64,000 nucleotides of DNA from assembly GCF_003334315.1 (NCBI RefSeq), contig NZ_QOWR01000003.1; one strand, written 5' to 3'. Every line of letters begins with the position of its first letter. Position 1 is the first letter of the stretch. This document shows positions 1,128 through 60,169 of this stretch, piece after piece. Below the pieces are notes generated by a model. The model saw only the letters and a list, made by a program, of their open reading frames with translations. It was not told the DNA's origin and did not search any database. The DNA is from Escherichia coli. Lineage in GTDB: Bacteria; Pseudomonadota; Gammaproteobacteria; Enterobacterales; Enterobacteriaceae. A program made the position numbers and the translations under genes.

Positions 1128-1181
1128 AGAAATAAATGGGGTCGCTAAATGTCCCCTAAGGTTGCGGGCAAACGCAAAACT

Positions 1182-1280
1182 GCCTGATGCGCTACGCTTA
1201 TCAGGCCTACACCGCTCCTGCAATATATTGAATTCTTGCGGTTTCGTAGGCCGGATAAGGCGGTCACGCCGCATCCGGCA
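1182..1280. repeat. REP/BIME cluster (two inverted REP units) between ybaM and the mscK 3' end
   Basis: gcctgatgcgctacgcttatcaggcctac ... gtaggccggataaggcggtcacgccgcatccggca; canonical REP palindromes. Confidence 0.85.
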
Positions 1281-1339
1281 TGAACAACGCGCACTTTGTT
1301 AGCAATCTCGGGGCAACTAAATGTTGCCCCCTTTCGTTT

Positions 1340-6831: not shown

Positions 6832-9984
<3,153 letters not shown>

Positions 9985-10002
9985 TACAACGTGTAATCAC
10001 TA

Positions 10003-10026
10003 AGGCCGCGTAAGCGGCCTTTTTTA
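10003..10026 (+). terminator. Intrinsic terminator downstream of acrB
   Basis: aggccgc-gtaa-gcggcct stem-loop followed by ttttt. Confidence 0.7.
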
Positions 10027-10529
10027 TGCATAACCTACGAACATTAAGGAGTAATTGAACCACCAACTCAGGATCTCATACGAAAACCAGTATTAACCAC
10101 GGATAAAATTCATAAAAAATACTGATTGTTAGTTAATTTATATTAAGTAGCGCTAATAGATTTAATAATCCATAATCATTTAGAGGCTATTCTTAATTAT
10201 TTGCGGTAATTTTTTATTCATTCCTCGGTTATTACGTCATATTCAGAGCAATCCTGGTATTAGTGTCACCAATTTCATCTGGCGATAATCCTGAAATGTT
10301 ATGAATAGTTCGAGCAAACTGCTTTTACCTGCTGCGGGTTAGTGCTAGTATGAAAAAGTGAGTCCTGTCCCGCTTCCTTCCTAATTGTAATTTTTCGTAA
10401 TAATGCGATGAAAACCTGCAAAGAGTGGCTTATAGTTAAGCTAACAAACGAGAGGGCAAGTCCAGGTCAGTAAGTTTTTTCCATCCCGAAAGGTGTCCGT
10501 TAGTTCAACCGCTAAGAAGGGGACGCGTT

Positions 10530-10904
10530 ATGGATGAATACTCACCCAAAAGACATGATATCGCACAGCTTAAGTTTCTCTGTGAAACCCTGTATCATGA
10601 CTGCCTTGCAAACCTTGAAGAAAGCAATCATGGCTGGGTAAACGACCCAACCTCGGCGATCAACCTCCAGTTGAATGAACTGATTGAGCATATTGCGACC
10701 TTCGCACTTAATTACAAAATTAAGTATAATGAAGACAATAAGCTCATTGAGCAGATCGACGAATATCTGGATGACACCTTTATGTTGTTCAGTAGTTATG
10801 GTATTAATATGCAGGATCTTCAGAAATGGCGGAAGTCAGGTAATCGACTATTCCGTTGTTTTGTCAATGCGACGAAAGAGAATCCTGCGAGTTTATCTTG
10901 TTAG
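10530..10904 (+). CDS. tomB: Hha toxicity modulator TomB (YbaJ)
   Basis: ORF track 10530..10904, 124 aa, [32 protein letters not shown]; immediately upstream of hha. Confidence 0.9.
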
Positions 10905-10929
10905 AATTATTACAACCATGGGTAGAAGT

Positions 10930-11148
10930 ATGTCCGAAAAACCTTTAACGAAAACCGATTATTTAATGCGTTTACGTCGTTGCCAGACAATTGACACGCT
11001 GGAGCGTGTTATCGAGAAAAATAAATACGAATTATCAGATAATGAACTGGCGGTATTTTACTCAGCCGCAGATCACCGCCTCGCCGAATTGACCATGAAT
11101 AAACTGTACGACAAGATCCCTTCCTCAGTATGGAAATTTATTCGCTAA
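10930..11148 (+). CDS. hha: Haemolysin expression modulator Hha (H-NS co-regulator)
   Basis: ATG at 10930 inside ORF-track entry 10684..11148; [72 protein letters not shown], 72 aa. Confidence 0.9.
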
Positions 11149-11225
11149 TAAATAATTCGCTTTCGGAGCTATAACCGGCTGTTTATTAAGAATTTTATAC
11201 TTTTTCGCCATGAAGACATACCCTA

Positions 11226-11241
11226 TGTGATCTTTATCACA
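11226..11241. promoter_or_regulatory. Consensus CRP-type palindrome (TGTGA-N6-TCACA) upstream of maa
   Basis: tgtga-tcttta-tcaca, both half-sites perfect, about 80 bp upstream of the maa ATG. Confidence 0.45.
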
Positions 11242-11319
11242 CAGATGTAATGGGAACGTTCTCTTCACTGACTTTTCGTCTTACTGTGTTGCCGCATTTT
11301 CAGCAACCGGAGGTCAGTA

Positions 11320-11871
11320 ATGAGCACAGAAAAAGAAAAGATGATTGCTGGTGAGTTGTATCGCTCGGCAGATGAGACGTTATCTCGCGATCGCCTGCGC
11401 GCTCGTCAACTTATTCACCGATACAATCATTCCCTGGCGGAAGAGCACACATTACGCCAGCAAATTCTCGCTGATCTATTCGGTCAGGTGACAGAGGCTT
11501 ATATTGAGCCAACGTTTCGCTGTGACTATGGCTATAACATTTTTCTCGGTAATAATTTTTTCGCCAACTTCGATTGCGTGATGCTTGATGTCTGCCCTAT
11601 TCGCATCGGTGATAACTGTATGTTGGCACCAGGCGTTCATATCTACACGGCAACACATCCCATCGACCCTGTAGCACGTAATAGCGGTGCTGAACTGGGG
11701 AAACCCGTCACCATCGGTAATAACGTCTGGATTGGCGGACGCGCGGTCATTAACCCTGGTGTGACCATTGGTGATAACGTCGTGGTAGCCTCAGGTGCAG
11801 TTGTCACAAAAGATGTCCCGGACAACGTTGTCGTGGGCGGTAATCCAGCCAGAATAATTAAAAAATTGTAA
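11320..11871 (+). CDS. maa: Maltose O-acetyltransferase (hexapeptide-repeat acyltransferase)
   Basis: ORF track 11320..11871, 183 aa; left-handed beta-helix hexapeptide repeats ([14 protein letters not shown].., [13 protein letters not shown].., [13 protein letters not shown]). Confidence 0.9.
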
Positions 11872-11986
11872 TCGGTTTTTCGCAACTGTTATGCAAAATT
11901 GTGGTAGATCTGTTACTTCCCCTCTACTATTCCCACGTTAAAATAGGGTGTTCCCTGGAAAGTTGCAGATACCACGAAGGCAAACG

Positions 11987-12457
11987 ATGACCGAAATACA
12001 ACGCCTGCTGACCGAAACGATTGAGTCTCTGAATACCCGCGAAAAACGCGACAACAAACCCCGCTTTAGTATCAGTTTTATTCGTAAACATCCGGGGCTG
12101 TTTATCGGTATGTACGTTGCTTTTTTTGCCACCCTGGCGGTGATGTTGCAGTCCGAAACGCTGTCAGGCTCTGTCTGGCTACTGGTTGTATTATTTATCC
12201 TGCTTAATGGTTTCTTCTTTTTCGATGTCTACCCACGCTACCGCTATGAAGATATCGACGTGCTGGATTTCCGCGTTTGCTATAACGGCGAATGGTACAA
12301 CACGCGCTTTGTACCTGCCGCGCTGGTTGAAGCCATCTTGAACTCTCCGCGTGTCGCGGATGTTCATAAGGAACAACTGCAAAAAATGATCGTCCGTAAA
12401 GGTGAACTGTCTTTTTACGATATTTTTACCCTCGCTCGCGCCGAATCAACATCTTAA
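11987..12457 (+). CDS. ylaC: Inner membrane protein YlaC
   Basis: ATG at 11987 ([25 protein letters not shown]..) inside ORF-track entry 11948..12457; 156 aa with two hydrophobic helices. Confidence 0.8.
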
Positions 12458-29995: not shown

Positions 29996-32350
29996 CTATT
30001 TTGCAGTCACAACCTGCATACCAGACGGTTCATTTTGCAGCGCCAGAGTCAGAACTTCCTCAATGCGCTTCACAGGATGAATGTCCAGATCGGCAATTAC
30101 GTTGTCAGGAATCTCTTCCAGATCGCGTTTATTTTCGAACGGAATTAGCACTGTTTTAATCCCGCCGCGATGCGCTGCCAGGAGTTTTTCTTTCAAACCA
30201 CCGATCGGCAGTACCTGACCACGCAGAGTGATCTCACCGGTCATTGCCACATCGGCACGAACCGGGTTACCGGTCAGGCAAGAAACCAGCGCGGTGCACA
30301 TAGCAATACCGGCACTCGGACCATCTTTCGGCGTCGCACCTTCCGGTACGTGGACGTGGATGTCACGTTTTTCGTAAAAATCAGGGTTGATCCCCAGTTT
30401 TTCCGCACGCGCACGAACCACCGTTAACGCCGCCTGAATGGACTCCTGCATCACTTCGCCGAGCGAACCGGTATAGGTCAGTTTGCCTTTACCCGGAACA
30501 CATGCGGTTTCAATGGTCAGCAAGTCACCGCCCACTTCCGTCCACGCCAGACCGGTTACCTGACCGACACGGTTTTCGTTATCAGCGCGACCATAGTCGA
30601 AACGCTGAACACCGAGGTAGTCATGCAGGTTATCGCCGTTAATTTCGATATGTTTTAATGACTTATCGAGCAGTAACTGCTTAACCGCTTTGCGGCACAG
30701 TTTGGAGATTTCACGCTCCAGACCACGCACGCCCGCCTCACGGGTGTAGTAACGAATAATGCCGATAATGGCGCTATCGTCGACGGTCAGCTCACCTTTT
30801 TTCAGTGCATTACGTTCAATCTGCTTCGGCAGCAGGTGACGTTTGGCGATGTTCAGTTTTTCATCTTCGGTATAACCGGAGAGGCGAATCACTTCCATAC
30901 GATCCAGCAGCGGTGCCGGAATGTTCATGGAGTTCGACGTCGCGACAAACATCACGTCGCTGAGATCGTAATCCACTTCCAGGTAGTGGTCGCTGAACGC
31001 TACGTTCTGCTCTGGATCCAGCACTTCAAGCAGTGCGGAGGCCGGATCGCCACGCATGTCAGAAGACATTTTGTCGATCTCATCGAGCAGGAACAGTGGG
31101 TTTTTCACGCCCACTTTCGCCATTTTCTGGATCAGTTTACCCGGCATAGAACCGATGTAAGTACGGCGGTGACCACGGATTTCCGCTTCATCACGCACGC
31201 CGCCCAGCGCCATACGGACATATTTACGCCCGGTGGCTTTGGCAATGGACTGACCAAGAGAGGTTTTACCTACCCCCGGCGGCCCTACCAGGCAGAGGAT
31301 CGGTCCCTTGATTTTGTTGACACGGCTTTGAACCGCAAGATACTCAAGGATTCGATCTTTCACGCGCTCCAGACCATAATGGTCGGTATCAAGGATTTCC
31401 TGCGCCTGACGCAGGTCTTTTTTGACCTTGCTGCGCGCATTCCACGGTACCTGTACCATCCAGTCGATATAACCACGCACTACGGTCGCTTCTGCCGACA
31501 TCGGAGACATCATTTTCAGCTTCTGCAACTCTGCTTCCGCTTTCTCTTTTGCCTCTTTCGGCATCTTCGCCGCGTCGATTTTGCGCTTCAGGGCTTCGTT
31601 TTCGTCCGGCGCGTCGTCCATTTCACCGAGTTCTTTCTGAATAGCTTTCATTTGCTCGTTCAGATAGTACTCACGCTGGGATTTCTCCATCTGCTTTTTA
31701 ACGCGGTTGCGAATGCGTTTCTCAACCTGCAGCAGATCGATTTCCGATTCCATCATTGCCATCAGATATTCCAGACGTTCGTTAACGTCGGACATCTCCA
31801 GAACGGACTGTTTGTCAGCCAGTTTCAGCGGCATATGTGCAGCAATGGTATCCGCCAGACGCGCCGGATCGTCGATGCTATTCAGCGACGTCAGCACTTC
31901 TGGTGGGATTTTTTTGTTCAGCTTGATGTAGCCTTCGAACTGGCTGATTGCAGTACGCACCAGCACTTCCTGTTCCCGCTCATCAATGGTCGGCGACTCC
32001 AGATACTCCGCCTTCGCAGAAAAGTGTTCGCCATTGTCAGAGAGCGCAGAAATACGCGCGCGCTGTAACCCCTCGACCAGCACTTTGACGGTGCCGTCAG
32101 GCAGCTTCAGCATCTGCAATATAGAGGCCACGGTCCCGACGGTGAAAAGATCGTTTACACCCGGCTCATCCGTTGAAGCTTCTTTCTGCGCGACCAGCAT
32201 AATTTTTTTATCATGGTCCATCGCCGCTTCCAGACAACGGATAGATTTTTCCCGCCCGACAAATAAGGGGATGACCATGTGCGGATAAACCACCACATCG
32301 CGCAGCGGCAATACGGGGATTTCAATGCGTTCAGAACGCTCAGGATTCAT
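29996..32350 (-). CDS. lon: ATP-dependent protease Lon
   Basis: ATG at 32350 ([33 protein letters not shown]) inside ORF-track entry 29996..32395; 784 aa; Walker [10 protein letters not shown]; catalytic Ser in PKDGPSAG. Confidence 0.97.
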
Positions 32351-32430
32351 AGAGCTCTCTCTTAGTTTAATTTCCGCCAGGTAATCAGATGACACGATTG
32401 TGCTTCACGCCATCTATTAACATGTACGTC

Positions 32431-32462
32431 AGTATATGGGGATGTTTCCCCCACATTCAACG
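32431..32462 (-). promoter_or_regulatory. Heat-shock (sigma32-type) promoter of lon
   Basis: Minus strand reads cgTTGAAtgtgggggaaacatCCCCATATAct, matching the sigma32 -35 (TTGAA) and -10 (CCCCATnT) consensus, about 80 nt upstream of the lon ATG. Confidence 0.6.
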
Positions 32463-32537
32463 CCGAGAATAGAGGAAAAATTAAAGGGGAGATAAAATCC
32501 CCCCTTTTTGGTTAACTAATTGTATGGGAATGGTTAA

Positions 32538-33812
32538 TTATTCACCAGATGCCTGTTGCGCTTCCGGCTTGCCATAAATCAGCAACGGTTTGCTTTGACC
32601 ATCAATTACCGACTCGTCTATAACCACTTTTTCGACATCTTCCATGGACGGCAGATCGTACATGGTATCGAGCAGTGCGGCTTCTACGATGGAACGCAGG
32701 CCACGGGCACCGGTTTTACGCGCCATCGCTTTCTTAGCGATAGCATCCAGCGCCTCGTCACGGAATTCCAGATCCACGCCTTCCAGATTAAACAGCGCCT
32801 GATACTGCTTGGTCAGGGCGTTTTTCGGCTCTTTGAGGATCTGAATCAGAGCTTCTTCGCTCAGTTCATTCAACGTTGCGACAACCGGCAGACGACCAAT
32901 GAACTCAGGGATCAGACCAAACTTGATTAGATCTTCCGGTTCAACCTGCGCCAGCAGCTCGCCTTCGCTTGCTTTGTCGGACTTCGCTTTTACCGTCGCG
33001 CCAAAACCAATGCCGGAGCCGGTTTCTACACGGTGGGAAATCACTTTATCCAGACCGGCAAACGCACCGCCACAAATAAACAGGATCTTAGAGGTATCAA
33101 CCTGCAAGAATTCCTGCTGCGGATGTTTACGCCCACCTTGCGGTGGAACAGCAGCTACCGTACCTTCGATCAGTTTCAACAGTGCCTGCTGTACGCCTTC
33201 ACCGGAAACGTCTCGGGTAATGGACGGGTTGTCTGACTTACGAGAAATCTTGTCGATTTCATCGATGTAGACAATACCACGCTGTGCTTTCTGGACATCG
33301 TAGTCGCATTTCTGCAACAGCTTCTGAATGATGTTTTCAACGTCTTCACCCACATAACCGGCTTCGGTCAGTGTAGTCGCGTCGGCCATGGTGAACGGAA
33401 CATCCAGCAGGCGCGCCAGCGTTTCAGCCAGCAGCGTTTTACCGGAACCGGTCGGACCGATCAGCAGAATGTTACTTTTGCCCAACTCGACGCCATTGCT
33501 GGTATCGCCGTTGCGCAGACGTTTGTAATGGTTGTATACCGCGACCGCCAGCACTTTTTTCGCCTGTTCCTGGCCGATAACGTAATCGTCCAGGTGGTTG
33601 CGAATTTCATGCGGCGTCGGTAGCGCACTGCGTTCACGATGCGGTGCAACTTCTTTAATCTCTTCGCGAATGATGTCGTTACATAAATCAACACATTCGT
33701 CGCAGATATACACGGATGGACCGGCAATCAGCTTGCGCACTTCATGCTGGCTTTTGCCGCAAAAAGAGCAATACAGCAATTTGCCTGAGCCATCTTTGCG
33801 TTTATCTGTCAT
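32538..33812 (-). CDS. clpX: ATP-dependent Clp protease ATPase subunit ClpX
   Basis: ORF track 32538..33812, 424 aa, zinc-finger [27 protein letters not shown], Walker A GPTGSGKT. Confidence 0.97.
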
Positions 33813-33937
33813 GGGTCAAAACCTCTTCTTTGTTCTTTGTGCCGCACACGACGACGCAAATGCCATTCTCAGGCGCAAGCCGCTTACAGCGTTGTGCCGC
33901 CCTGGATAAGTATAGCGGCACAGTTGCGCCTCTGGCA

Positions 33938-34561
33938 TCAATTACGATGGGTCAGAATCGAATCGACCAGACCGTATTCCACCGCTTCAGGGGCGGAAAG
34001 GAAGCGATCGCGCTCGGTATCACGTTCAATCTGTTCTAATGATTGACCCGTATGAAGCGCCATAAGTTCATTCATGCGCCCTTTAACTTTCAGAATTTCA
34101 CGGGCATGAATTTCGATATCGGTCGCCTGGCCCTGGTAGCCGCCCAACGGTTGGTGAATCATCACGCGCGAATTCGGCAGGCAAAAACGTTTACCTTTTG
34201 CCCCTGCGGTCAGCAAGAAAGCGCCCATCGAGGCCGCCTGGCCCATACAGATGGTGCTGACATCAGGCTTGATAAACTGCATGGTGTCATAGATAGACAT
34301 CCCGGCAGTGATCACCCCGCCTGGGGAGTTAATGTACAGATAGATATCTTTTTCTGGGTTTTCCGCTTCCAGGAACAGCATCTGCGCCACAATCAGGTTA
34401 GCCATGTGGTCTTCAACCTGGCCAGTCAGAAAAATGACGCGTTCCTTAAGTAGACGAGAATAGATATCAAAAGAGCGCTCACCGCGTGAGGTCTGTTCAA
34501 TGACCATCGGCACCAGCGCCATATGGGGTGCAAAGTTATCTCGTTCGCCGCTGTATGACAT
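33938..34561 (-). CDS. clpP: ATP-dependent Clp protease proteolytic subunit ClpP
   Basis: ORF track 33938..34561, 207 aa, active-site region [11 protein letters not shown]. Confidence 0.97.
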
Positions 34562-60117: not shown

Positions 60118-60148
60118 ATGCCGGGATTTATTCCCGGCATTTCTGATT
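60118..60148 (+). terminator. Intrinsic terminator downstream of tsx
   Basis: atgccggga-ttta-ttcccggcat stem followed by ttctgatt. Confidence 0.7.
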
Positions 60149-60169
60149 GTTAACAACGTGTGCTTTGTT

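Follow-up and report, generated by a model that had tools for sequence, protein, structure and literature searches.

The AT-rich tomB-hha locus of Escherichia coli: a conserved core operon with a disputed toxin-antitoxin classification

Hha and its operon partner TomB (YbaJ) are a textbook pair of Escherichia coli K-12, well studied by genetic, structural and biochemical means. The pair was proposed to be a toxin-antitoxin (TA) module on the grounds of a shared operon, a gap of 25 bp, the small size of both proteins, autoregulation by Hha and toxicity of Hha (PMC2408971). In the same work over-produced Hha was toxic, and as routes of this toxicity it was reported that rare tRNA genes are repressed, the lysis genes of cryptic prophages activated and ClpP, ClpX and Lon induced; YbaJ attenuated this toxicity, tomB and hha were stated to be co-transcribed, and Hha was reported as a repressor of the tomB-hha operon in E. 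coli (PMC2408971). Hha binds the N-terminal domain of H-NS and StpA, is associated with the chromosome only through them and is needed to repress part of their regulon (PMC3686432), and Asp48 of Hha is reported as essential for H-NS binding (PMC4519777). As for the antitoxin, its activity needs oxygen: YmoB or TomB makes a transient contact with Hha, Cys18 is oxidised to -SOxH and Hha is destabilised (Marimon et al. 2016, PMC5155140). Cysteine-free YmoB retained some antitoxin activity (PMC5155140), which leaves part of the chemistry in doubt. In addition, deletion or over-expression of hha or tomB in Salmonella left growth unchanged in LB and in minimal medium (PMC5133643), so the word "toxin" may overstate the physiological role.

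The assignment of the pair to type II or type VII is disputed. Hha-TomB was later called type VII (PMC7641770), while a Salmonella study from the same month as PMC5155140 calls the pair type II, having described a stable complex of Hha with TomB, lability of TomB and its binding to the promoter (PMC5133643). The type VII systems HepT/MntA and TglT/TakA are like TomB-Hha in that the antitoxin modifies the toxin chemically and does not sequester it (PMC7641770). However, TomB cannot be recognised as an enzyme and does no more than enhance an oxidation that O2 brings about spontaneously, Hha acts as a nucleoid-associated co-repressor and is neither an RNase nor a nucleotidyltransferase, and the locus is a core gene pair. 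With the type II systems MazEF and RelBE, tomB-hha shares the order (antitoxin first, toxin a few bases downstream), the small proteins and the reported negative autoregulation, but TomB carries no recognisable DNA-binding domain, its contact with Hha is reported to be transient, the toxicity is indirect and the chromosomal position is fixed throughout the family. The YmoB-YmoA pair of Yersinia belongs to the same two protein families, and in E. coli the antitoxin role of TomB can be taken over by YmoB (PMC5155140). Of the two antitoxins, TomB contains four cysteines (18, 25, 110 and 124) and YmoB two; the C18-type site of TomB is described as duplicated, and the C-terminal tail is the most variable part of the family (PMC5155140).

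The DNA analysed here (the window, 64 kb) aligns in one piece, in reverse orientation, to positions 427,237-491,237 of K-12 MG1655 with 99.65% identity. TomB and Hha are 100% identical to K-12 b0461 and b0460, respectively, and the region has the same order as in K-12 (acrA-acrB-tomB-hha-maa-ylaC-pdeB), the same 25-bp spacer and the same 545-bp upstream region; from 9985 to 11319 only two bases differ from K-12, T for C at 10212 and G for A at 10920. In the ORF listing of 9800..11900, a 1049-aa ORF, acrB, ends at 9984 upstream of tomB, and hha is followed by maa (183 aa, 11320..11871), ylaC (a 169-aa ORF) and pdeB (a 518-aa ORF). TomB matches the NCBIfam equivalog NF007948 ("Hha toxicity modulator TomB") with 234 bits against a cut-off of 108 over residues 1-121, and the Pfam family YbaJ (PF10757) with E=1.1e-65 over residues 1-117. 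Hha matches NF008191 ("hemolysin expression modulator Hha") with 169 bits against a cut-off of 90, and the Pfam family HHA (PF05321) with E=9.5e-40. Because of these matches, tomB and hha are genuine genes and not chance ORFs. The original prediction, made from the letters alone, had named a tomB-hha bicistron of 124 and 72 aa with a gap of 25 bp; the identification is right, and the coordinates and sizes are exact on reading the ORFs. It had also regarded the locus as known and TA-like, which holds; the original TA proposal (PMC2408971) rests on the same arguments. It had further called it the only TA-like locus in the window, in line with the K-12 annotation: for the colinear part between yajC and ybaN, a non-exhaustive reading gave no other annotated toxin or antitoxin. 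The features are collected in Table 1.

Table 1. Features, coordinates and base composition of the tomB-hha region
Feature	Coordinates	Strand	Description	GC (%)	Basis
Whole window				51.5
acrB				54.0
AT-rich block	9985..11319			39.0
acrB-tomB intergenic region	9985..10529	+	545 bp, variable AT-rich middle	37.6
Intrinsic terminator of acrB	10002..10026	+	8-bp GC-rich hairpin AAGGCCGC-GTAA-GCGGCCTT, then T-run		terminator scan
Conserved promoter block	10385..10436	+	-35 ATGAAA 10408..10413, 17-nt spacer, -10 TATAGT 10431..10436		consensus scan
Inferred tomB leader	10443..10529	+	~87 nt (start +/- few nt)		position of -10 hexamer
tomB (ybaJ)	10530..10904	+	Hha toxicity modulator, 124 aa	40.5	ORF; TAG stop 10902..10904
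Candidate internal promoter in tomB	10701..10730	+	TTCGCA-18-TATAAT, 10/12 matches; ~200 nt upstream of hha		best-scoring site of scan
tomB-hha spacer	10905..10929	+	25 bp, with hha RBS AGAAG (10924..10928)	32
hha	10930..11148	+	72 aa, H-NS-binding co-silencer, Hha/YmoA family	40.6	ATG at 10930, stop codon end at 11148
hha-maa gap				39.2

The reading preferred here, with a probability of about 0.88, is that the locus is the chromosomal core-genome tomB-hha operon, in which one sigma-70 promoter most likely gives a bicistronic mRNA, Hha is a co-silencer and TomB neutralises it via oxidation of Cys18. In this scheme, the hexamers ATGAAA-17-TATAGT, some 90-120 bp ahead of tomB, would form the single promoter of the tomB-hha mRNA, and hha would be translated from its own ribosome-binding site within the 25-bp spacer. 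Hha, for which no sequence-specific DNA binding has been demonstrated, attaches to H-NS/StpA filaments and strengthens the silencing of AT-rich, mostly horizontally acquired genes. When over-produced, Hha is toxic, reportedly by indirect routes, in which rare tRNA genes are repressed while prophage lysis genes, ClpXP and Lon are induced, and TomB would touch Hha transiently and accelerate the oxidation of Cys18 by molecular oxygen, by which Hha would unfold. The partnership with H-NS, the toxicity and the oxidation mechanism are taken from the literature. Since the pair is so well known, the locus is of little weight as a discovery; the value of the check lies in its corrections, namely that the AT-richness is ancestral, that the promoter is near tomB, that the TA label is based on over-expression phenotypes and that the TA class is disputed.

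The proteins contain what the oxidation mechanism requires. In TomB, residues K15, L17, C18, E19, C25, N49, E53, A56, E78, D81, D82, F84, F108, C110, F111 and C124 are present. Accordingly the setting of Cys18 (K/R15-L17-C18-E/D19), the aromatic residues 108 and 111 and the Hha-contact residues of PMC5155140 are all there; position 77 is D where that paper gives E. Cys18 of Hha is kept in 79/79 loci and C18 and C25 of TomB in 80/80 (among the best 80 of 331 loci, see below). The required residues are therefore present and conserved, the activity itself being known from PMC5155140 and PMC7641770. TomB matches the NMR structure of YmoB, 2MN2, with E=2e-50, YmoB being aligned to TomB residues 1-112, from which a four-helix bundle may be inferred for TomB. 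Hha has the same length as the Hha structures 1JW2/2MW2 (E=1e-44), and 4ICG is a further solved structure of Hha; the match to YmoA (2K5S) gives E=4e-34, and YdgT/Cnu, solved as 2JQT and named "H-NS/StpA-binding protein 2", is among the structural relatives of Hha. Cys18 and Asp48 are both present in Hha and are invariant in the alignment with the plasmid paralogues.

No other feature of the window stands out as strongly in base composition as the block from the end of acrB to maa. Among 1254 sliding stretches of 1335 bp it has the third lowest GC content; the minimum (38.8%, start 9951) overlaps it, and all 12 stretches below 42% GC fall on it. The AT-rich block of the original prediction is thus borne out by comparison with both the window and acrB (Table 1). 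Its age was judged from other species. A scan with one genome per species gave 331 loci with TomB relatives, of which the best 80 were fetched; all of these are from Enterobacteriaceae, with a TomB identity of 89-100%. In 79 of these 80 loci hha follows tomB on the same strand within 60 nt, and the exception (L060), in which the matches of every gene are fragmented, is apparently an error-rich assembly. Upstream, acrB lies on the same strand in each of the 72 loci that include its 3' end, and maa and ylaC come next in most. The tomB-hha spacer is 23-28 bp in 71 of the 72 complete loci (8 bp in one), TomB is 124 aa long in 71/72, and the acrB-tomB gap is 435-559 bp across 72 species. The GC content across these species is also uniform in its contrast, being 34.6-40.4% for the intergenic region, 39-46% for tomB and 37-45% for hha, against 51-58% for acrB. 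Consequently, the synteny comparison confirms that the order acrB-tomB-hha, the spacer and the low GC are kept in 72 species of Enterobacteriaceae. In Providencia (Morganellaceae), tomB and hha are adjacent after a gap of about 525 bp, but mltD is upstream instead of acrB. Of the complete E. coli genomes, 5425 of 5426 carry the 1335-bp block, at a median of one copy per genome and under the annotation tomB/hha.

Because order, low GC and gap length are conserved family-wide, the AT-richness is ancestral, an old and fixed feature of a core operon, and not a recent import; any acquisition of the block is therefore older than the family Enterobacteriaceae. Among the best 80 of 331 loci, TomB and Hha have median protein identities to the window of 93% and 94%, respectively, while Maa reaches 78% and YlaC 77%, which from sequence comparison indicates strong purifying selection on the pair. 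The tomB-hha locus is thus a fixed, strongly conserved regulatory module and not a mobile addiction element. One minor variant was met in E. coli 2017.04.03CC (L090, 1515..2212), where a copy of IS1A lies between hha and maa and parts hha from maa and from the CRP-like site described below.

The hairpin and T-run of the acrB terminator are conserved at 82-97% among 73 distinct intergenic sequences of Enterobacteriaceae, and this terminator separates acrAB from the tomB-hha unit. After the terminator, a segment of about 70 nt (10035..10104) occurs in fewer than 10% of the 73 aligned sequences and is essentially restricted to Escherichia. In the same alignment the strongly conserved stretch runs from 10385 to the start of tomB: an invariant TTGTAATTTT at 10385..10394 precedes the promoter hexamers, and the conservation of the promoter block is 0.79-1.00. 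ATGAAA-17-TATAGT has been given as the constitutive sigma-70 promoter of tomB-hha by genomic SELEX, and the acrB-tomB spacer is flagged as H-NS-associated in a genomic SELEX table of the same paper (PMC3946193). Moreover, the RNA polymerase ChIP-seq peak assigned to tomB corresponds to 10345..10540 of the window (PMC4447067; coordinates converted here from older K-12 numbering), and of the 1000 bp that precede tomB in Salmonella, only the final ~80 bp contain an active promoter, "p922" (PMC5133643). In a study of RNase E the tomB/hha substrate starts at -89, the authors remarking that substrate ends need not match the ends in vivo (PMC4191395). The tomB leader is therefore most likely about 87-89 nt long, the transcription start being deduced from the position of the -10 hexamer; direct data on the 5' end or transcript length of tomB-hha were not found in the literature, and PMC4681348, PMC11092163 and PMC4782308 give nothing on tomB in their supplements. 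The original prediction had spoken of a long leader. The intergenic region is indeed long (545 bp), but because the conserved promoter (10408..10436) is close to tomB, near the 3' end of this region, a leader of about 87 nt and not of 545 nt is implied.

A permissive Rfam scan (E<=1) of both strands of 9700..12200 found no RNA family, so the long intergenic region contains no known sRNA or riboswitch. Within the leader, the Shine-Dalgarno sequence of tomB is GAAGGGG at 10516..10522, and a near-invariant motif CCATCCC (10481..10487) is complementary to the Shine-Dalgarno/start-codon region 10516..10533 (GGGGAYG...ATGG). CCATCCC could, as a matter of speculation, be an anti-Shine-Dalgarno element. 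The fold of 10441..10545 has z=-0.13 against shuffled sequences, and an alignment of the leader from 17 genera shows no compensatory change in seven predicted pairs, the motif columns being invariant and thus giving no covariation; because neither fold nor covariation lends statistical support, the idea stays speculative.

The single bicistronic transcript is in turn inferred: tomB and hha are adjacent on the same strand, and the terminator scan gave no terminator-like site between them. The alternative that the two genes are expressed largely independently, with an hha promoter inside tomB that sets the TomB:Hha ratio at transcription, is unlikely, although several observations speak for it. 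The site at 10701..10730 is the top promoter-like match of the region, a separate RNA polymerase SELEX entry "hha", for which hexamers are not given, is placed between tomB and hha (PMC3946193), and RNase E cleavage sites reported at the tomB-hha junction region (PMC4191395), together with the prophage sRNA HnrS, which pairs with the hha RBS AGAAG and represses Hha ten-fold (bioRxiv 10.1101/2025.11.27.690950), show that post-transcriptional uncoupling of the cistrons is possible. However, the region holds four promoter-like sites against a shuffle expectation of 4.8 +/- 1.9, and the candidate lies within conserved coding sequence, which makes its conservation unusable as evidence. Furthermore, the literature treats the pair as co-transcribed (PMC5133643, PMC2408971), and deletion of the upstream promoter in Salmonella mimicked both hha and tomB mutants (PMC5133643). 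The base at 10920 noted above, G in the window and A in K-12, is 4 nt upstream of the RBS that constitutes the published HnrS pairing site.

The operon reading, with Hha as co-silencer, was further compared with the distribution of both families on plasmids, in which tblastn was run against 72,556 plasmid records. Hha relatives occur on at least 5000 records; among the matches listed these are mostly conjugative plasmids, with identities of 54-68%. TomB gave matches on only 14 of the 72,556 records, and seven of the 14 are megabase-sized. The two small enterobacterial records that were opened are chromosomal fragments with acrA-acrB-tomB-hha-maa-ylaC, and thus no inspected TomB match (two of 14) proved to sit on a real plasmid. 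As a remark on the database, some "plasmid" records of PLSDB (NZ_CP137697.1, NZ_CP149222.1 and the megabase-sized ones) are chromosomal fragments. The plasmid paralogues of Hha (IncI1, IncI2, IncF and others) and the chromosomal YdgT/Cnu have the HHA domain in common with Hha but, unlike chromosomal hha, no adjoining tomB gene. Of the three plasmid copies inspected (L002, L003, L004), one is preceded by a topoisomerase gene, another by excA and the third by an ORF of 122 aa that is unrelated. The three plasmid proteins were aligned and all keep Cys18 and Asp48. The 122-aa ORF, which is upstream of hha on a Klebsiella IncF plasmid, was considered as a hidden relative of TomB and rejected, as it gave no BLASTP alignment with TomB and no NCBIfam family.

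Because Hha is found on thousands of plasmids without the antidote, it does not behave as an obligate TA toxin, and plasmid Hha without TomB argues against an obligate toxin-antitoxin pair. The numbers, at least 5000 Hha plasmids and no genuine TomB one, make a simple comparative argument for the co-silencer role, and they fit the description of Hha as primarily an H-NS co-silencer and of TomB as a chromosome-only modulator. The argument could be carried further, to the point that there is no TA relation at all: TomB would, for every member of the Hha family, be a redox "off switch" confined to the chromosome, the plasmid paralogues would be governed in trans by the single TomB of the host, and the TomB:Hha ratio would be tuned by CCATCCC and the possible hha promoter inside tomB. 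Such a role would start from the plasmid-borne paralogues, thousands in number, which keep Cys18 (in the three aligned) and have no TomB; this extension is likewise improbable.

Somewhat less probable again is a classical type II module, in which labile TomB would sequester Hha in a stable complex and repress its own promoter via palindromes. The layout (antitoxin first, short spacer, two small proteins) agrees with type II, and in S. Typhimurium co-precipitation, decay of TomB within 60 min and a gel shift with the p922 fragment were described (PMC5133643). On the other hand, NMR detected only a transient contact, and oxygen is required (PMC5155140). Pfam finds only YbaJ in TomB and no HTH, RHH or AbrB-type DNA-binding domain; moreover, the locus is a fixed core pair in nearly all of the complete E. 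coli genomes (the 5425/5426 above), syntenic across the family, and the plasmid records with Hha relatives, at least 5000, are without a TomB partner. Type II modules, by contrast, tend to be mobile and to have a patchy distribution. The term "type II-like" in the original prediction accordingly stands for the gene layout, whereas the mechanism is contested between PMC7641770 (type VII) and PMC5133643 (type II). In summary of the class, the pair is TA-like in layout and over-expression behaviour only and is currently filed as type VII.

That the AT-rich block is a recent foreign island or a mobile TA cassette inserted beside acrB, as its low GC content, which falls short of the window mean by 12 points and ranks with the three lowest values in 1254 stretches, together with the abundance of Hha relatives on conjugative plasmids, might suggest, is effectively refuted, because the same order, low GC and similar intergenic length in 72 species of Enterobacteriaceae speak for an old block, the annotated flanks contain no IS, integrase or tRNA gene, and the inspected "plasmid" matches of TomB are chromosomal fragments with acrAB...maa.

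Some other features of the window deserve mention. A perfect CRP-consensus palindrome, TGTGATCTTTATCACA, is found at 11226..11241, in the gap from the stop of hha (11148) to the start of maa (11320), and is the only TGTGA-N6-TCACA in the 64 kb. Its half-sites are retained without mismatch in 40 of the 79 Enterobacteriaceae loci, where the 6 nt between them vary, and the palindrome was also scored as a minus-strand hairpin in the terminator scan; it probably serves maa as a CRP site. For tomB-hha itself no canonical terminator was found. The genes clpP, clpX and lon are in the same window, at about 29996..34561 on the minus strand (converted from K-12 456,677-461,242); Hha toxicity was reported to act through these proteases (PMC2408971), and their presence in the window is taken as a coincidence of the map and not as linkage. 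Finally, two segments of about 140 bp, 1170..1307 and 60145..60282, are each 83% identical to the K-12 position matching the other, and this points to a dispersed repeat close to two intergenic regions, mscK/ybaM and yajD/tsx.
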